DNA from: a virus | Direction: 5' to 3' (one strand) | DNA length: 5,525 nt | IMG/VR virus record: IMGVR_UViG_3300025641_000002 | Coordinates: 1-5,525 of that record | Shown: piece after piece, positions 1 through 5,525 of the stretch | How positions within the stretch are numbered: the first letter of the stretch is position 1 | Layout of the letters: each line of letters starts with the position of its first letter | Notes under the pieces: generated by a model | Told to the model about the DNA's origin: nothing | The model's input: the letters and a program-made list of their open reading frames with translations, nothing else | The model's database searches: none | Program-made: the position numbers and the translations under genes

Positions 1-46
1 AAAAATAGACGATTTTGATTATCTTGATGCATATTTTGGAAAATAA
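1..46 (+). CDS. Partial CDS: duplicated C-terminal 14 codons plus stop of the pilot/VP2-like protein (KIDDFDYLDAYFGK*)
   Basis: Same sequence and frame as 5399-5444; TAA at 44-46. Present only because of the circular wrap-around. Confidence 0.8.
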   Translation, partial: KIDDFDYLDAYFGK

Positions 47-47
47 A

Positions 48-116
48 ATGTGCGCCAAGTGTAAAAAAATACGAAAAATTATAACCAAAATCATTGCAAG
101 GAGAAAACGCAAATGA
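48..116 (+). CDS. Candidate 22-aa polybasic mini-protein MCAKCKKIRKIITKIIARRKRK (second copy at 5446-5514), possibly a J-like DNA-condensing peptide
   Basis: ATG at 48 lies 1 nt after the VP2-like stop (TAA 44-46). Its TGA (114-116) overlaps the capsid ATG (113-115) as ATGA. 11 of 22 residues are K or R. Caveat: the spacer is A-rich, which gives Lys codons for free, and the SD is weak. Confidence 0.25.
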   Translation: MCAKCKKIRKIITKIIARRKRK

Positions 117-1792
117 GAATGACTGAATTAATACCAAACAGCCCGATTGCTGTACAGAAATCGCGCCGATCTGCAAAAGGTCGAGTATTGACGTCAGGCG
201 ACGCAGGTAAAATCCTGCCGTTGAAATACGAATGGCTACACCGTGAAGACGGCGTGCAAAGCGGTAAAATCCGTATGAACGTTGAAATGATGGAAACATC
301 AGAAATGTTAATGAACGGTGTTGGCGTAACACTTTACGCACATTTTGTCCCAATGCTTGCATTTGACCGATTTAACGGATCAATGGACGAATTGAACCGA
401 TCATATAAAAAAGAAAATGGTGCCGCAGGAAGTGTAGTACCATTTTTTGAAACGAATAAATATTTTGATTATTCTACAAATAGTCAAGGTCAATCATCAG
501 GTACAAGTGGTTGGGATACACTTCAACCTACTCCATCAATAGGTATAGCCCAATTTTATCAAACAATGGGTATGCATTTTGAAACACAAAATTTAAACAC
601 AACAGTTGTTGAAGCATATAATGCAATTGTTAACCATAGACGCAAAGCGAGATCAAAATCATTACCATTAAGAAACGCATATGATCATACTTTAGCTGAT
701 GCGTTTTGGATTAATAATGGAATGCAAAATATCGTACCAGATTACGATCAATCATTGATTGACGGACAAGTAACACTTGCCGGATTGACATTCCAAGCGC
801 CAATAAAAGCACCATTTATGACACGTGATGGATATAATAATTCAGCTGCTGCAAATAACACAACTGGATTACCATCAAGTCAAGGATTTGCACCTGCAAT
901 GGCAGGAAGCGATATCATTGACCAAGGTGATATGTATTTATTTGAAGATATATACGCTGAGTTATCAACAGGCGGAAACGCAACAATGTCATTAGCTGAC
1001 ATTGAGCAAGCACGTAAAACAGCGGCATTTGCTAAATTAAGAGCAAAGTACGATGGAATAGATTCAGAGCATATTATTGACTTACTTATGAGCGGAATAC
1101 GTGTTCCAGAAGAAGCATTAAAACAACCAATATTATTGGGTCGTCAACGTGCAATGATAGGATTTAACCAACGTTATGCAACAGACGGCGCAAACTTGGA
1201 TAAGTCAGCAACAAACGGTATGGCAACAATTGACATGTCAATTAGAACACCGGCTATGAATACCGGCGGCGTTATAATGATAACTGCCGAAATAGTGCCA
1301 GAACAACTTTGGGAACGTAAGAAAGATTATTTCTTATACACAACAGACCCAGATACGTTACCTAACTATCTGTCTGATGTATTAGACCCAGAAAAAACGG
1401 CAGTTGTAAAAAATGACCACGCTGATGTAAACCATGCAACACCAGATGGAACATTTGGTTATGCACCATTAAACCATGAATGGCAAAGAGATGCGGTAAA
1501 TGTAGGTGGTAAATATTACCGCCCTGCAAATGACGCATTTGACGAAGACCGTGCAAAAATTTGGACGGCTGAGTCAATAAACCCATCGCTAAATGAAGAC
1601 TTTTATTTATGTTCAGGTTTGCACAAAAAAGTATTTGCCGATCAAGTATCAGACAGTTTCGAAATCACATGTCTTACAGATATGTCGATTGTAGGAAACA
1701 CCGTATTCGGTGCGGGACTACAAGAAACTGATGCAACATCTGATTACGACACAATCACTTCACAAGTCGATTCCTCGCGTATCGTTAAGTGA
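113..1792 (+). CDS. Major capsid protein, Microviridae F/VP1 family (559 aa)
   Basis: Longest ORF. AAGGAG at 98-103, 9 nt before the ATG. The size is typical of gokushovirus-type VP1. The N-terminal block AGKILPL...(about 35 aa)...LYAHFVPMLAF resembles the conserved G.l.P ... fFVP.R block of F/VP1 jelly-roll capsid proteins, as I recall it. The genomic context (Rep plus pilot protein in a 5.4-kb circle) fits. Confidence 0.88.
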   Translation: MRMTELIPNSPIAVQKSRRSAKGRVLTSGDAGKILPLKYEWLHREDGVQSGKIRMNVEMMETSEMLMNGVGVTLYAHFVPMLAFDRFNGSMDELNRSYKKENGAAGSVVPFFETNKYFDYSTNSQGQSSGTSGWDTLQPTPSIGIAQFYQTMGMHFETQNLNTTVVEAYNAIVNHRRKARSKSLPLRNAYDHTLADAFWINNGMQNIVPDYDQSLIDGQVTLAGLTFQAPIKAPFMTRDGYNNSAAANNTTGLPSSQGFAPAMAGSDIIDQGDMYLFEDIYAELSTGGNATMSLADIEQARKTAAFAKLRAKYDGIDSEHIIDLLMSGIRVPEEALKQPILLGRQRAMIGFNQRYATDGANLDKSATNGMATIDMSIRTPAMNTGGVIMITAEIVPEQLWERKKDYFLYTTDPDTLPNYLSDVLDPEKTAVVKNDHADVNHATPDGTFGYAPLNHEWQRDAVNVGGKYYRPANDAFDEDRAKIWTAESINPSLNEDFYLCSGLHKKVFADQVSDSFEITCLTDMSIVGNTVFGAGLQETDATSDYDTITSQVDSSRIVK

Positions 1793-1796
1793 TAAA

Positions 1797-1825
1797 ATGC
1801 GGGGTAGCTCTCCCCTACCCCGCAT
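1797..1825 (+). terminator. GC-rich stem-loop 5 nt after the capsid stop (11-bp stem, 7-nt loop)
   Basis: ATGCGGGGTAG (1797-1807), loop CTCTCCC, CTACCCCGCAT (1815-1825): a perfect complement. It is followed by AAATTT rather than a clean T-tract, so it is either a weak or partial terminator or a structural hairpin. Confidence 0.5.
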
Positions 1826-1846
1826 AAATTTAAAAAGGAAAATGAA

Positions 1847-2371
1847 ATGAATAGAATTAAACACGGCAATATAAGCAAATGGTCACAAGCAAAAGCGGGC
1901 GACGTAATTGAATTTGCATCAAGCAAACCAAGACATGTAAAGTTTGAAGTAACTGCAAACAGCAACATCGAAGTTTGGGTAGCAAACGATAATAAAATGT
2001 CTGACGCCGTATTGGTGGGAACATCAAACGGAAAAACAGAAATTCAATACACAGCAACCGCAACAACGTATGTGCAAATTAAAGCTGAAAAATCAGCGGC
2101 AGTATTTGTAAATATACCAGATATCGATCAATCAGTACAAAATAGCGATGAACCAAGTTTCACGTCTATTGAGCCACGTGTAAACAACAGCACTGAATTT
2201 GATCGTATGGTTGCATTTATGAAACACAACGAAACGCAACGTAATGCACAATTAGAAGCTGAAAGATCAGCTCTAAGAGCAGAAGTAGCAAAAATTAAAG
2301 CAGAAGCTGAAACAGTAGTTGAAGCGCCACAAGAGGCAGAAACAGAAGATGCAGGAGAAACCCCCGAGTAA
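1847..2371 (+). CDS. Hypothetical protein (174 aa): beta-rich N-terminal half plus acidic, helical E/A/K-rich C-terminal tail. Possibly a scaffold or other structural protein.
   Basis: ATG at 1847 with AAGGA at 1835-1839. It fills the capsid-to-peptidase gap with no competing frame. The C-terminus is NAQLEAERSALRAEVAKIKAEAETVVEAPQEAETEDAGETPE. I recognise no family motif. Confidence 0.7.
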   Translation: MNRIKHGNISKWSQAKAGDVIEFASSKPRHVKFEVTANSNIEVWVANDNKMSDAVLVGTSNGKTEIQYTATATTYVQIKAEKSAAVFVNIPDIDQSVQNSDEPSFTSIEPRVNNSTEFDRMVAFMKHNETQRNAQLEAERSALRAEVAKIKAEAETVVEAPQEAETEDAGETPE

Positions 2372-2885
2372 GTTTCTACGCTGGATACGGTTTATTGACC
2401 GTATCCAGTTTTGGCACCGCGATGAGCTGGTGCATAAAACACACGTAGAAGCGGCAAGATCATTAGCAGAACCTAATGCATCAAAATCACTCTGGGTTAA
2501 AATTCAGCAAACAGAAAACGATTATAGAGGGGTACACCCTGAAATAATTGAGTTTTGGAAAGCATTTTCCAAAGCAATGAAGCGACGCAATATACCATTG
2601 CGAGCGTTTGAATTTGTACGATCTGCAGAACGACAACAAGAGTTATACGATAAAGGCAGAAGCAAAGCATCTGCCGGATTTGGTGCGCACCAATATGGAA
2701 TGGCTGTGGATGTAATCCACGCCACACGCGCATGGCAATTAAGCAAAAAAGAATGGGACTGTATAGGAGCAGTCGGCAAAGAAATAGCGCGTAAAAGAAA
2801 CATAAAATTAGATTGGGGCGGAGATTGGAATTTCTACGATCCCGCACACTGGGAACTAGACAATTGGCAAGACCAAATCAAATAA
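2349..2885 (+). CDS. Zinc metallopeptidase family M15 (VanY / D-Ala-D-Ala carboxypeptidase-like, phage L-Ala-D-Glu endopeptidase-like): putative peptidoglycan hydrolase
   Basis: Motifs RSAERQQELYDKGRS, AHQYGMAVD (His codon 2688, Asp codon 2709) and DWGGDWNFYDPAHWE (His codon 2847) match the H-x6-D...H zinc site and WGG.W...D..H.E signature of M15 enzymes. The start is uncertain. The ORF-track start at 2319 is TTG. I prefer ATG 2349 (AAGAGG at 2331-2336). GTG 2430, downstream of the 2381-2412 hairpin, is also in frame. Confidence 0.85.
   Translation: MQEKPPSKFLRWIRFIDRIQFWHRDELVHKTHVEAARSLAEPNASKSLWVKIQQTENDYRGVHPEIIEFWKAFSKAMKRRNIPLRAFEFVRSAERQQELYDKGRSKASAGFGAHQYGMAVDVIHATRAWQLSKKEWDCIGAVGKEIARKRNIKLDWGGDWNFYDPAHWELDNWQDQIK
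2381..2412 (+). terminator. Intrinsic-terminator-shaped hairpin (10-bp perfect stem, 8-nt loop, TTTT) 10 nt after the 1847-2371 stop
   Basis: CTGGATACGG (2381-2390), loop TTTATTGA, CCGTATCCAG (2399-2408), then TTTT (2409-2412). It lies inside the 5' part of the peptidase ORF if that ORF starts at 2319 or 2349. Confidence 0.55.
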
Positions 2886-2891
2886 AAAACA

Positions 2892-2909
2892 GTAAGTTGA
2901 ATAACTTAC
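2892..2909 (+). other. Stem-loop GTAAGTT-GAAT-AACTTAC in the peptidase-Rep spacer
   Basis: 7-bp perfect stem with a 4-nt loop. The same arm sequences recur in the hairpin at 3138-3160. Confidence 0.5.
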
Positions 2910-2912
2910 ATA

Positions 2913-2955
2913 GGCAAACGGAACGGAAACTCCAAGTATTGGAGTTCCGTTTGCC
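2913..2955 (+). other. Long bulged stem-loop (11 bp + 6-nt bulge + 6 bp, 3-nt loop) in the peptidase-Rep spacer
   Basis: GGCAAACGGAA (2913-2923) pairs with TTCCGTTTGCC (2945-2955). CTCCAA (2930-2935) pairs with TTGGAG (2939-2944). The bulge is CGGAAA (2924-2929). There is no downstream T-tract, so it is not a classical terminator. Confidence 0.6.
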
Positions 2956-3025
2956 GACTAGATATCCCCTACCCTTGTTAAGATATGCATTTAGTGACAC
3001 CAAACGACAGGAACAGCAGTAAATT

Positions 3026-4060
3026 ATGTGCATCGCACCAGTAAAATTAGATGATGGGACGGAAGTTGGGTGTCGCGAATGCTGGCAATGCCGAAAACGT
3101 AGAGTTAACGATTACGTTGGAAGATGCATTGCCGAAAGTAAGTTTTCGAAAAAAACTTACGCTGTAACATTAACGTATGACGGAGACCAAGGCGTTAATG
3201 CAGTAACGTTAATTTATAAAGACGTTCAGGATTTTCTTAAAAGACTGCGTAAAAAACATAAATGTCGTTACATCGTTACTGGAGAATACGGTAGCGCAAA
3301 AGGACGTTCACATTGGCATATAATACTATTCTTTAAGGATAGTTGGCCAGAAGTGACGTCAAACAAAAGGGTAGATTGGAAATATTGGAAACATGGTTTT
3401 AGTTATTTTCAAGAACCGGACTGGAAGGGTTTTGAATATTGCCTAAAATATGTTCTGAAAGATCAGACATCAAGGCAAAGTGATAGCCACTTGGCTATGA
3501 GCAAAAAACCACCACTAGGACACGAGTTTTTTCAACAATTAGCAAAGCAATATGTTGAACAAGCCCTCGTCCCACAAACATATTTCTATAAGTTTGGAGA
3601 CGTCAGGGATTATAAAAACAGAGAAAAGGGGTTTATGATGCAAGGAAAAACAAGAGAAAATTTTATGGAAACTTTTGTCAACCAGTGGGAGGATACATAC
3701 TCTCACGAACCGTTATCGGAATTAGTAACAGACTATTACGACGATATAACGGAAATAGAGTACACGGACGAAGAACTGTACGAAAGATTGCATTATCAAC
3801 CTGTAAAATATGTAGAACCATGGATTGAAGGACAAGGAGACGGAATATTTAAAGATATAGAATTAGTAGAAGCAACGTATGACGGAATACCAATATGTTA
3901 TTGGGATAATAAAAACAAAACAGGCATACATATAGTGACGGAGAATGACGAATGGCACGAAAAAAGACCCGAAGTAATACAAACAATAAAACAAGGACAA
4001 CAAATACAACGACGGCGAACCTACGCCGAAGTACAGTACGCGGAATTGGACGAGGTATAG
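3026..4060 (+). CDS. Rolling-circle replication initiation protein (HUH endonuclease; Microviridae VP4 / gpA-like), 344 aa
   Basis: N-terminal Cys cluster MCIAP...GCRECWQC. Motif I AVTLTY. DFLKRLRKK...RYIVTGEYG. HUH motif HWHIILF (His codons 3311 and 3317). Tyrosine motif YCLKYVLK (Tyr codons 3437 and 3449). This arrangement is the classic gokushovirus-type VP4 layout as I know it. Confidence 0.93.
   Translation: MCIAPVKLDDGTEVGCRECWQCRKRRVNDYVGRCIAESKFSKKTYAVTLTYDGDQGVNAVTLIYKDVQDFLKRLRKKHKCRYIVTGEYGSAKGRSHWHIILFFKDSWPEVTSNKRVDWKYWKHGFSYFQEPDWKGFEYCLKYVLKDQTSRQSDSHLAMSKKPPLGHEFFQQLAKQYVEQALVPQTYFYKFGDVRDYKNREKGFMMQGKTRENFMETFVNQWEDTYSHEPLSELVTDYYDDITEIEYTDEELYERLHYQPVKYVEPWIEGQGDGIFKDIELVEATYDGIPICYWDNKNKTGIHIVTENDEWHEKRPEVIQTIKQGQQIQRRRTYAEVQYAELDEV
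3138..3160 (+). other. Stem-loop GTAAGTTTT-CGAAA-AAAACTTAC inside the Rep gene
   Basis: 9-bp perfect stem with a 5-nt loop. It shares the GTAAGTT/AACTTAC arms with 2892-2909. It lies in codons for ESKFSKKTY. Confidence 0.45.
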
Positions 4061-4254
4061 AAATATACAGTCCACCCGTTGAACAACGGGAGCGAACAGC
4101 CGAACCACCTCCCGAACGGGATCTAGCGAAGCGGAAAAAATCCCCGAAAAACTTTACGGTCAGAGATCTGCGGATAAGGTGTAAGGACAGACCTAAGAAA
4201 AACACCCCTACTGGGGGGTCAGGGTCTAAAAAAACATTTGTACCTTGGTGTTAA
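3952..4254 (+). CDS. Overprinted, highly basic 100-aa ORF (27 K+R, 8 D+E), possibly a DNA-binding or packaging protein
   Basis: ATG at 3952 with GGAG at 3940-3943 (8-nt spacer). It overlaps the last 109 nt of Rep in the -1 frame and then is the only open frame across 4061-4254. The C-terminal part is KRKKSPKNFTVRDLRIRCKDRPKKNTPTGGSGSKKTFVPWC. There is no internal canonical start after the Rep stop. Confidence 0.45.
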   Translation: MARKKTRSNTNNKTRTTNTTTANLRRSTVRGIGRGIEIYSPPVEQRERTAEPPPERDLAKRKKSPKNFTVRDLRIRCKDRPKKNTPTGGSGSKKTFVPWC

Positions 4255-4288
4255 AAGTAAAAAAATGATACATTTTTAAAAAAAGTGC

Positions 4289-4318
4289 TTTACATTCCCA
4301 AATGTACAAAGCTATAAA
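4289..4318 (+). promoter_or_regulatory. Candidate sigma70-type promoter TTTACA-18 nt-TATAAA in the largest noncoding region
   Basis: TTTACA at 4289-4294 and TATAAA at 4313-4318, in the AT-rich 4255-4415 spacer upstream of the mini-ORF / VP2 / capsid gene block. Pattern match only. Confidence 0.3.
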
Positions 4319-4415
4319 AACGTATGGGTCAACACAACGAGTCTCATCATGGTATCATAATATATATTATCGGCCATTGAGCGTTTTGACCCTTCTATAA
4401 AAGAAGGAGTAAAAA

Positions 4416-4595
4416 TTGCAATTACTACTAATCAAGCAAATTCTAAAACCGATTATCACAAGATGTGGTACTATGCTTGGCGCATCGCTTGCGGGCGCAG
4501 GAATAGCAGTTGGTACAACGGAAAGTATCGTTTTGGGATTTACCGCACTAGCGGGAGTATCGATCGACCTCATAACACGGAGGTGGATCAAATGA
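4416..4595 (+). CDS. Unannotated 59-aa small membrane protein (two Gly/Ala-rich hydrophobic segments, basic C-terminus), holin-like candidate
   Basis: TTG at 4416 preceded by AAGGAG (4404-4409, 6-nt spacer) and an in-frame TAA at 4410. Hand translation gives M(TTG)QLLLIKQILKPIITRCGTMLGASLAGAGIAVGTTESIVLGFTALAGVSIDLITRRWIK. The TGA at 4593-4595 overlaps the next ATG (ATGA). Confidence 0.5.
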   Translation: MQLLLIKQILKPIITRCGTMLGASLAGAGIAVGTTESIVLGFTALAGVSIDLITRRWIK

Positions 4596-4687
4596 AATTA
4601 AAAGACATCATTATAGCAACAGTAGCGGGAATAGTAATGGGTTTAGCCTTATTCTCGGATACGTTGTTAAACGCGGGAGTAATATAA
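4592..4687 (+). CDS. 31-aa single-pass membrane mini-protein MKLKDIIIATVAGIVMGLALFSDTLLNAGVI
   Basis: ATG at 4592 with GGAGG at 4579-4583 (8-nt spacer). It is ATGA-coupled to the upstream mini-ORF, and its stop at 4685-4687 is 1 nt before the VP2-like ATG. It is the C-terminal part of the 74-aa track ORF 4463-4687, whose N-terminal part looks non-coding. Confidence 0.5.
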   Translation: MKLKDIIIATVAGIVMGLALFSDTLLNAGVI

Positions 4688-4688
4688 T

Positions 4689-5444
4689 ATGCCATTTGGA
4701 TTAACATTTGGAAAACTTGCACAAGTAGCACTTGGAGCTTATGGCGCAAAAAAGAGTGCTAAAGCAATGAAAGGCGCAAACGATCTTGATTTGAAAAAAT
4801 TAAGACGTGAAGCAGAAGAAAATGGGTTTAACCCATTAACAGTACTACGAGCCACAGGCGGACAAGGTAGTACAAAAGGCCCATCTGGCGGTTTAGCTAG
4901 TGGGGCATTTTTTAGTACATTTGCACAAGGAATACCAAGTATTCTTGAATCAAATTACGATAAAAAAATGAAAGATGCACAGTTAGCAAGTACAATTGCT
5001 AACACACGTTATACGGGTGCATTAACACATGATTTATTAACAAATCCAAATAAAGGCGGACGAAGAATTGATCCATTAAGTGGATTAGAAATTAAAGACG
5101 CTTTTATACAAGTAATGGGTGATGATGGGAAATTAACAAAAGTTCCCAACAACGAAATTACAGAAGGTAACAATCCAATTGAATTAGCAACAGCTGCAGG
5201 TATGCAAATAACATCAGAAGTTGCAAATAAATTAGGAGTGCCATTACCTACCCCAACATCTTATGTTGATATGGGTGCAAAGGTTTGGAATAAAATTGGA
5301 TTATTATCAAAAGGTGCTTTTGATAAATTAAAATCCAAAGCAACTAAAAGTTATCAAGAAAATCACGGAGCTTTAGCAAGTGATACAATCATAACGTCAA
5401 AAATAGACGATTTTGATTATCTTGATGCATATTTTGGAAAATAA
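4689..5444 (+). CDS. Minor capsid / DNA pilot protein (VP2 / H-like), 251 aa
   Basis: GGGAG at 4675-4679, 9 nt before the ATG. It has a Gly/Ala-rich hydrophobic N-terminus (MPFGLTFGKLAQVALGAYGA) and then a basic helix. The EENGFNPLTVL motif resembles the G(L/I)NP motif I associate with gokushovirus-type VP2. It sits directly upstream of the capsid gene on the circle. Confidence 0.7.
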   Translation: MPFGLTFGKLAQVALGAYGAKKSAKAMKGANDLDLKKLRREAEENGFNPLTVLRATGGQGSTKGPSGGLASGAFFSTFAQGIPSILESNYDKKMKDAQLASTIANTRYTGALTHDLLTNPNKGGRRIDPLSGLEIKDAFIQVMGDDGKLTKVPNNEITEGNNPIELATAAGMQITSEVANKLGVPLPTPTSYVDMGAKVWNKIGLLSKGAFDKLKSKATKSYQENHGALASDTIITSKIDDFDYLDAYFGK

Positions 5445-5525
5445 AATGTGCGCCAAGTGTAAAAAAATACGAAAAATTATAACCAAAATCATTGCAAGGA
5501 GAAAACGCAAATGAGAATGACTGAA
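5399..5525. repeat. Terminal direct repeat, copy 2 (includes the duplicated capsid start codon at 5511)
   Basis: Identical to nt 1-127, offset 5,398 nt. ATG 5511 corresponds to ATG 113. Confidence 0.97.

Follow-up and report, generated by a model that had tools for sequence, protein, structure and literature searches.

The window analyzed here, 5,525 nucleotides (nt) of viral DNA from the IMG/VR record IMGVR_UViG_3300025641_000002 (positions 1 to 5,525), contains a gene for a soluble zinc metallopeptidase that belongs to the MEROPS family M15 and is nearest to its L-alanyl-D-glutamate endopeptidases. The protein, in the following called M15, is probably best explained as the endolysin of a microvirus of the Occultatumvirinae (Family 7), with the small membrane protein TMa of the same genome as candidate holin. 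The M15 gene, its family, its conserved position, and its presumed role in lysis are already known and are typical of the subfamily; because they have been published and the gene is annotated in cultured relatives, the finding of the peptidase by itself adds little. The co-occurrence of M15 and TMa is a useful lead to the route by which a phage with a genome of 5.4 kb could bring an endolysin from the cytoplasm to the wall.

An M15 peptidase encoded by a microvirus had been the original prediction, made from the letters of the window, and it was confirmed by profile, PHROG, PDB, and fold matches as well as by the presence of the major capsid protein VP1 and the replication initiator Rep on a circle of 5398 nt. 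With hidden Markov models of Pfam the protein matched Peptidase_M15_4 (PF13539, 31.1 bits) and VanY (PF02557, 25.9 bits), both above the cut-off of 25 bits, by a small margin. The best PHROG matches are endolysin families, led by PHROG 465 "endolysin" (E 4.9e-21), while NCBIfam gave no match for any protein of the window. A phmmer search of the PDB sequences retrieved LysECD7 (8q2g, 1.7e-10), the RB49 peptidase (7e-10), and ChiX (2e-9), with weaker matches to LysB4 and Ply500. In these alignments the H, D, and D..H residues are matched up: AHQYGMAVD corresponds to srHlhGlavDv in 8q2g, a solved peptidase, and DWGGDWNFYDPAHWE to the D..H of 8q2g, RB49, and ChiX. The H-x6-D motif in AHQYGMAVD and the third ligand, on which the prediction had been built, are invariant in an alignment of 55 homologues, together with further residues (R91, Q96, H114, A119, D121, G157, D159, D164, and H167; numbers are counted from the ATG at 2349). 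Judged from these alignments, H114, D121, and H167 are the predicted zinc ligands and D164 the predicted catalytic base. R91 and Q96 belong to an "RS..Q" motif, which is presumably of the type usual in M15 substrate-binding sites.

An AlphaFold2 model built from the 55 homologues has a mean predicted local distance difference test score (pLDDT) of 85.8, with values of at least 90 over most of residues 61-178. In the structure comparison, which had been suggested with the prediction, Foldseek ranked ChiX, LysECD7, Ply500, RB49, and LysB4 highest for the model, with E values of about 1e-8 to 1e-6 for these closest five solved enzymes and of 8e-3 for EndoT5 of phage T5. The target-normalised template modelling score is 0.64-0.78 for ChiX, LysECD7, and Ply500, and the probability is 1.00 for these three as well as for LdcB and VanY; hedgehog N-domains appear lower in the list. 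The protein thus combines profile scores above threshold, the H-x(3-6)-D and D/E-x-x-H motifs, and the hedgehog/DD-peptidase fold of family M15. The top five sequence matches and the top five structure matches are all enzymes with proven L-Ala-D-Glu specificity, which assigns it to subfamily C, among the enzymes of the T5/Ply500/ChiX type. The nearest solved structures are all L-Ala-D-Glu endopeptidases, which act as endolysins or, in the case of ChiX, are taken to be released through a holin-like protein.

The VanY score and the presence of VanY and LdcB structures among the Foldseek matches could also be read as signs of a D-Ala-D-Ala carboxypeptidase of the VanY type, which would remodel peptide stems without lysis, for example to block superinfection or to change the wall in a carrier or prophage state, and relatives of the virus do exist as prophages. 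However, the best sequence and structure matches are all endopeptidase endolysins, the VanY/LdcB carboxypeptidases are 3-4 orders of magnitude weaker in Foldseek, the best PHROG families are those of endolysins, and the gene is retained in strictly lytic isolates. A VanY-type enzyme is therefore very improbable.

The longest possible open reading frame (ORF) of the peptidase extends from 2319 to 2885 on the + strand and opens with TTG. Translation almost certainly begins at the ATG at 2349, because the N-termini of homologues begin there with MQ..EK.P.KFLRW, and because the M15 gene of the cultured Roseobacter phage CRPss-153 overlaps its upstream gene likewise; the original prediction had named 2349 as well. 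From this start the gene takes up 537 of 5398 nt (9.9%), very near the tenth of the genome that had been estimated. Its median ratio of nonsynonymous to synonymous substitution rates (dN/dS) against IMG/VR relatives is 0.13, compared to 0.14 for VP4 (Rep) and 0.19 for VP1. M15 is a genuine and undamaged gene that is under the constraint of an enzyme. The coordinates of all features are collected in Table 1.

Table 1. Features of the window (positions are those of the 5,525-nt stretch)
Feature	Position	Strand	Remarks
VP1, major capsid protein	113..1792	+	tblastn to annotated microvirus capsids
ORF174, conserved 174-aa (amino acid) gene	1847..2371	+	Last 23 nt overlap the M15 start
M15 (subfamily C-like) zinc peptidase, putative endolysin, 178 aa	2349..2885	+	Pfam, PHROG, PDB, and Foldseek matches
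Predicted basic amphipathic helix, M15 residues 6-19 (PSKFLRWIRFIDRI; KFLRWIRFIDRI)	2364..2405	+	Hydrophobic moment 0.77
VRSAERQQEL, "RS..Q" motif with R91 and Q96	2616..2645	+	Aligned with vRSletQ of 8q2g
AHQYGMAVD, H-x6-D motif, predicted zinc ligands	2685..2711	+	H114 2688-2690, D121 2709-2711
DWGGDWNFYDPAHWE, predicted catalytic Asp and third zinc ligand	2811..2855	+	D164 2838-2840, H167 2847-2849
Two stem-loops, M15-Rep intergenic	2892-2909, 2913-2955	+	DNA fold -22.7 kcal/mol
VP4, rolling-circle replication initiator (Rep)	3026..4060	+	PF23343 E 5e-19; PHROG 942 E 1.6e-39
Highly basic 100-aa protein	3952..4254	+	Overprinted on Rep 3' end, extends beyond; conserved in relatives
TMa, 59 aa, two predicted membrane helices, basic C-terminus TRRWIK	4416..4595	+	Candidate holin
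TMb, 31 aa, one predicted membrane helix	4592..4687	+	ATG overlaps TMa stop (ATGA)
VP2, DNA pilot protein	4689..5444	+	47% identical to CRPss-153 protein of same slot
Terminal redundancy of assembly	5399..5525	.	Identical to 1-127; marks circular genome

Because the first 127 nt are repeated at the end of the window with 100% identity and a spacing of 5398 nt, it is a complete circular microvirus genome of this size with an assembly overlap. The + strand carries every credible gene, including VP1, VP2, and VP4, and the genome belongs to Occultatumvirinae/Family 7 of the Microviridae. For membership in this subfamily a VP1 identity of at least 30% across at least 80% of the length to members has been set (PMC11499846), and VP1 of the window reaches 75-77% to the major capsid proteins of CRPss-152/153/155 and 40-41% across 98-100% of the length to the capsids of Rhizobium microviruses. 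The gene order is that described for Families 7 and 14, VP1-peptidase/amidase-VP4-VP2 (Kirchberger et al., 2022; PMC9239249). The VP2 slot is annotated as "DNA pilot protein" in the phage CRPss-154. The nearest cultured relatives are the Roseobacter phages CRPss-151/152/153/155, and the CRPss phages have been placed in Occultatumvirinae/Family 7 (Zhang et al., 2024; PMC11499846). The capsid assignment of VP1 rests on tblastn, because no Pfam capsid family matched at E values up to 0.1. Screens that depend on Pfam models would thus miss this subfamily.

It had been assumed that peptidase genes are rare in microviruses and that their role is uncharacterised, and neither assumption holds for this group. 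Most genomes of the subfamily encode a peptidase or endolysin-like protein, but subgroups 6 and 7 and CRPss-154 lack it (PMC11499846). It occupies a fixed slot between VP1 and VP4, where conserved lysis-associated genes have been described (Kirchberger et al., 2022; PMC9239249). "Lysis" has been listed among the usual proteins of these genomes (Zucker et al., 2022; PMC9753089), and mcp, rep, and lys have been named as the basic gene set of Rhizobium microviruses (PMC9512667). The literature thus treats the peptidase as the probable gene for lysis in this subfamily (PMC11499846; PMC9239249; PMC9512667; PMC3394797). Outside the subfamily, M15_3 peptidases were first reported for gokushoviruses and alpaviruses, and an endolysin role was proposed (Roux et al., 2012; PMC3394797). 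Our searches gave the same picture. A nucleotide search with the whole window against GenBank phages retrieved CRPss-151/152/153/155 with an "M15 family metallopeptidase" at the matching position, and a protein search with M15 retrieved 18 tortoise, 11 bat, and 27 Rhizobium microviruses, in the last of which the gene is annotated as "endolysin protein". A peptide-pattern scan of IMG/VR yielded 193 relatives, the best of which have 96-99% identical M15 proteins and are uncultured. Eighty IMG/VR loci were fetched, and gene order was scored wherever the contig was long enough; the order VP1-ORF174-M15-VP4 was found in 80 of 80. Tortoise microviruses, a prophage of Devosia, and the Roseobacter and Rhizobium phages in culture have it, too.

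The distribution also bears on the origin of the gene, which had been regarded as a probable horizontal acquisition. In a comparison of 48 genomes and the window, the M15 distances track those of VP1 (Spearman 0.78) and VP4 (0.84; Mantel p 0.001), and VP1 and VP4 track each other with 0.88. The G+C content of M15 is 0.43 and thus inside the range of the other genes of the window (0.35-0.47). A recent horizontal acquisition was rejected on the basis of this G+C content and the co-divergence with VP1 and VP4. A Devosia pacifica homologue was considered as a bacterial donor and was likewise rejected, as this copy sits inside an integrated microvirus. The Occultatumvirinae-like prophage (GCA_014652635.1, BMZE01000001.1; positions 4498-9818 of locus L090) has the order TMa-VP2-VP1-ORF-M15-two small ORFs-Rep and lies between mazG and a metallo-beta-lactamase-fold gene on a 1.4-Mb chromosomal contig. 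The purifying selection together with the co-divergence with the capsid and replication genes points to M15 as an old inherited component of the subfamily. Of the proposed acquisition only an event in the distant past stands; as the enzyme family is common to tailed phages and bacteria, it is reasonable to assume that the gene once came from outside.

How would such an enzyme act? The M15 protein has a charged N-terminus and contains no hydrophobic segment (the maximum of the 19-residue Kyte-Doolittle mean is 0.52), and no signal peptide, membrane anchor, or transmembrane segment was detected anywhere in the protein. We propose that it would build up in the cytoplasm. When the infection ends, it would cleave the stem peptides in the peptidoglycan of the host, in a predicted zinc-dependent reaction, whereupon the progeny could escape. 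The bond cleaved would be the L-Ala-D-Glu bond of the stem peptide, as judged from the nearest characterised enzymes. Because M15 contains neither a signal peptide nor a membrane anchor, it would need a membrane lesion to reach the wall, and this lesion would be made by TMa as holin, possibly with the help of TMb. A canonical holin permeabilises the membrane and so releases the endolysin at a defined time. The result would be a holin-endolysin system, unlike the inhibition of wall synthesis by the E protein of phiX174. Such a system typically comprises a soluble endolysin without a secretion signal, as found here, and a small membrane protein with a charged C-terminus, of which the genome encodes two, TMa and TMb, although these features are permissive and not holin-specific. 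An E-type mechanism would entail an overprinted membrane protein and no muralytic enzyme; in the window a muralytic enzyme is present.

TMa and TMb lie between the basic protein and VP2, and TMb ends 1 nt before the VP2 start. They are the only ORFs of 25-110 codons on the + strand with transmembrane-like segments, and as both are free-standing, the genome offers no overprinted candidate similar to E of phiX174. Both are real genes, with dN/dS values of 0.035 and 0.10, respectively, the former being the lowest value and thus the strongest constraint in the genome. Homologues of TMa are encoded by CRPss-153, CRPss-251, the Rhizobium phage, tortoise microvirus 81, and the Devosia prophage, and they share the invariant residues P12, R16, G18, L25, G29, and D51. 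For TMb, close marine relatives show an identity of 81-100%, and the more distant loci L031 and L032 one of 68-71%; counterparts of equal size and position are present in CRPss-153 and CRPss-251, and absent from the Rhizobium phage. In a group of loci (L038-L043, L051, L056, and L057) TMa and TMb are 88-90% and 77-87% identical, respectively, while VP1, M15, and VP4 are only 54-66% identical, and the nucleotide identity of the TMa-TMb region is 78-86%, compared to about 65% elsewhere. These values are suggestive of an exceptional constraint on the module or of its recombinational exchange between lineages.

The link between TMa and the peptidase is their joint occurrence. TMa was found in 61 of 62 loci with M15, and the sole exception is a contig that is cut inside TMa. 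In contrast, neither a profile search nor tblastn found TMa in the five relatives without M15, that is, in CRPss-154 and four Ciona microviruses, which represent two lineages. The set stayed at five genomes because a search of IMG/VR with VP1 of CRPss-154 revealed no close relatives of this phage. A limited check of the literature yielded no mention of the co-occurrence. TMa matched no Pfam, PHROG, or NCBIfam family, and thus no recognised holin family. A profile search of 5.8 billion proteins retrieved 196 relatives of TMa; the 120 listed are all encoded on contigs of at most 12.5 kb, and none of these 120 has a Pfam domain or an informative name. In addition, tblastn of TMa against the GenBank phage collection gave only two weak microvirus matches and no tailed-phage holin. 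The TMa family is therefore apparently confined to microviruses and unannotated. We tentatively suggest, as a possibility that is somewhat short of an even chance, that a split holin-endolysin system is present in a widespread marine and soil subfamily, composed of M15 and the microvirus-specific TMa, with TMb in the marine lineages, and that TMa is gained and lost together with M15.

Several points weigh against the assignment of M15 and TMa as endolysin and holin. The activity is predicted from sequence for the window protein as well as for its close homologues, and the verified enzyme of the microvirus Ebor matched another template, 6SSC, in the HHpred analysis of its authors. The N-terminal 50 residues of M15, with a predicted basic amphipathic helix, have no counterpart in the endolysins of tailed phages. 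CRPss-154, a phage of the same subgroup, contains neither M15 nor TMa and was recovered from a lysis-monitored enrichment on the same host, and therefore lysis in this group may not be strictly dependent on the two proteins; the culture was mixed and the phage was never purified. Furthermore, TMa does not lie beside M15, as is usual, albeit not obligatory, for a holin, but about 1.5 kb downstream, separated from it by Rep and directly upstream of VP2, a place that could fit a role in entry or assembly, too. It matches no known holin family. Last, the genomes without M15 form two lineages, and the co-occurrence thus rests on at most two independent losses. Because of this small number, the distance from M15, and the place upstream of VP2, we infer the holin role of TMa rather than read it from the genome.

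CRPss-154 is also the starting point for an alternative in which lysis is brought about by TMa or TMb alone, similar to E, and M15 is an accessory that speeds wall breakdown or widens the host range. Lysis by a single gene is the only mechanism that has been experimentally established in Microviridae (PMC3394797), CRPss-154, which has no M15, came from an enrichment on the same host, and TMa is the most strongly constrained gene. However, CRPss-154 has neither TMa nor TMb, and TMa is missing in the Ciona microviruses as well, so that TMa cannot serve lysis throughout the group. The constraint on M15 is as strong as that on Rep, which is an ill fit for a dispensable accessory, and neither TMa nor TMb is overprinted as E is. 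We regard this alternative as quite improbable. In the slot after its ORF174 homologue CRPss-154 (locus L082) encodes a protein of 191 aa (5145-5720) without M15 motifs, possibly an alternative lysis protein that has escaped recognition. Neither this protein nor those that fill the peptidase slot in the Ciona microviruses matched any family, and no replacement lysis enzyme was identified among them.

The N-terminal extension raises another alternative, namely that M15 is a virion-associated entry enzyme. Residues 6-19 have the highest hydrophobic moment of the protein, the AlphaFold2 model contains a helix from 8 to 19 with low pLDDT, and the PDB alignments start at about residue 53, so that this helix is absent from the solved tailed-phage enzymes. 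The basic helix is kept in close relatives, and distant ones carry other Arg/Lys-rich segments instead. Basic segments are typical of proteins packed with single-stranded DNA. A few packaged copies would open the peptidoglycan locally and thus let the VP2 pilot conduit pass through the periplasm, possibly with a second role at lysis, similar to muralytic proteins of PRD1 and phi6, which are tailless phages. The translational linkage of M15 to a conserved gene 3' of the capsid gene would fit this, and purified virions of Ebor contained the peptidoglycan hydrolase of this virus, for which a zymogram showed activity, in trace amounts only (Bardy et al., 2025; PMC11980548). However, VP1, VP2, and the basic Gp10 are the only proteins present in significant amounts in Ebor virions (PMC11980548), entry proceeds without such an enzyme in other microviruses and also in the relatives that lack M15, CRPss-154 and the Ciona microviruses, and a lysis pair accounts better for the strict joint occurrence of M15 and a small membrane protein. 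An entry enzyme is therefore unlikely, and of the two roles left side by side in the original prediction, true endolysin and virion-associated entry enzyme, that of an endolysin is the most plausible.

ORF174 lies between VP1 and M15 in 80 of 80 related loci, has a dN/dS of 0.20, and is kept in every relative, including those without M15. It matched no Pfam, PHROG, or NCBIfam family; its N-terminal part is probably beta-rich, and its acidic tail is probably helical. The basic protein that is overprinted on Rep has a dN/dS of 0.42, which is relaxed, as expected of an overlapping frame. It shares its position and charge character with Gp10 of Ebor, which was detected in virions (PMC11980548), and by this analogy it is a probable DNA-charge-neutralising virion protein. 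The stem-loop region between M15 and Rep (2892-2955) is more stable than expected (z -5.7; none of 200 shuffles was equally stable), and the segment 2921-2999 is 78% identical to non-coding DNA of CRPss-251. A motif ending in CCCCTACCC occurs twice, directly after the VP1 stop (1798-1820) and directly after the second stem-loop (2952-2974). Possible roles of the stem-loops and the motif are those of a terminator, an origin of the complementary strand, or an element recognised by Rep. A promoter scan of the window gave 8 sites versus 15.3 expected by chance and yields no transcription map, and nearly all terminator-like matches are on the non-coding strand.

If a split holin-endolysin system is indeed present, microviruses span both known lysis strategies, and TMa defines a new holin family. 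Its confirmation would mean that some of the most common phages with single-stranded DNA in the ocean use holin-endolysin lysis instead of following the phiX174 model. It would also affect the annotation of lysis genes in microvirus metagenomes and would make a lysis cassette of very small size available for alphaproteobacteria.

Comparison with known systems shows which features are shared and which are specific. The Roseobacter phages CRPss-151/152/153/155 (PP558214-PP558218; Occultatumvirinae subgroup 11) have the same architecture, with VP1, the conserved ORF, M15, and Rep in the same slots. Their M15 proteins are 59-60% identical to that of the window over 86% of the ORF taken from TTG, the M15 start overlaps the upstream gene as in the window, and counterparts of TMa and TMb are located upstream of VP2. 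However, the sequences have diverged, and the G+C content is 44%, compared to 39% for the window genome. More distant are the Rhizobium microviruses (RHph_Y2_19, MN988489; chaparro- and chicoviruses), which belong to the same subfamily and have the same gene order, an "endolysin protein" that is 33% identical to M15, and, in RHph_Y2_19, a TMa homologue directly upstream of VP2, as in the window. They differ in that they have no TMb, an extra ORF of 66 aa after the endolysin, soil hosts, and a high G+C content.

Among the solved enzymes LysECD7 (8q2g), RB49 (23ri), T5 EndoT5 (2mxz), Ply500 (2vo9), LysB4 (6akv), and Serratia ChiX (5opz) share the fold, the zinc ligands, and the catalytic residues with M15, at E values in sequence comparison of 1.7e-10 to 3.7e-5 and identities of 20-27%. 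In contrast to these L-Ala-D-Glu enzymes, M15 has an additional N-terminal region of about 50 residues and is encoded by a single-stranded DNA genome of 5.4 kb, and it lacks a cell-wall-binding domain, which Ply500 and LysB4 possess.

Within the Microviridae, the Peptidase M15_3 genes of human-gut Gokushovirinae and Alpavirinae also belong to the M15 clan and have been proposed to be endolysins gained by horizontal transfer (PMC3394797). However, they belong to another Pfam family (PF08291), are sporadic, occur at variable positions, and were independently acquired, whereas the gene of the window is a stable, co-diverging component of its subfamily. Gp7 of Ebor (Tainavirinae; PMC11980548) is a muralytic enzyme of an alphaproteobacterial microvirus and is encoded between the capsid and Rep genes, and the layout of the genome is like that of the window also in that a membrane protein of 45 aa is encoded upstream of VP2 and a basic protein is overprinted on Rep. 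It differs in its subfamily and in that its activity has been experimentally shown, while that of M15 is predicted. The E protein of phiX174 likewise serves lysis by a microvirus, but it is a small overprinted membrane protein that inhibits MraY and does not degrade the wall enzymatically, unlike the predicted action of M15.

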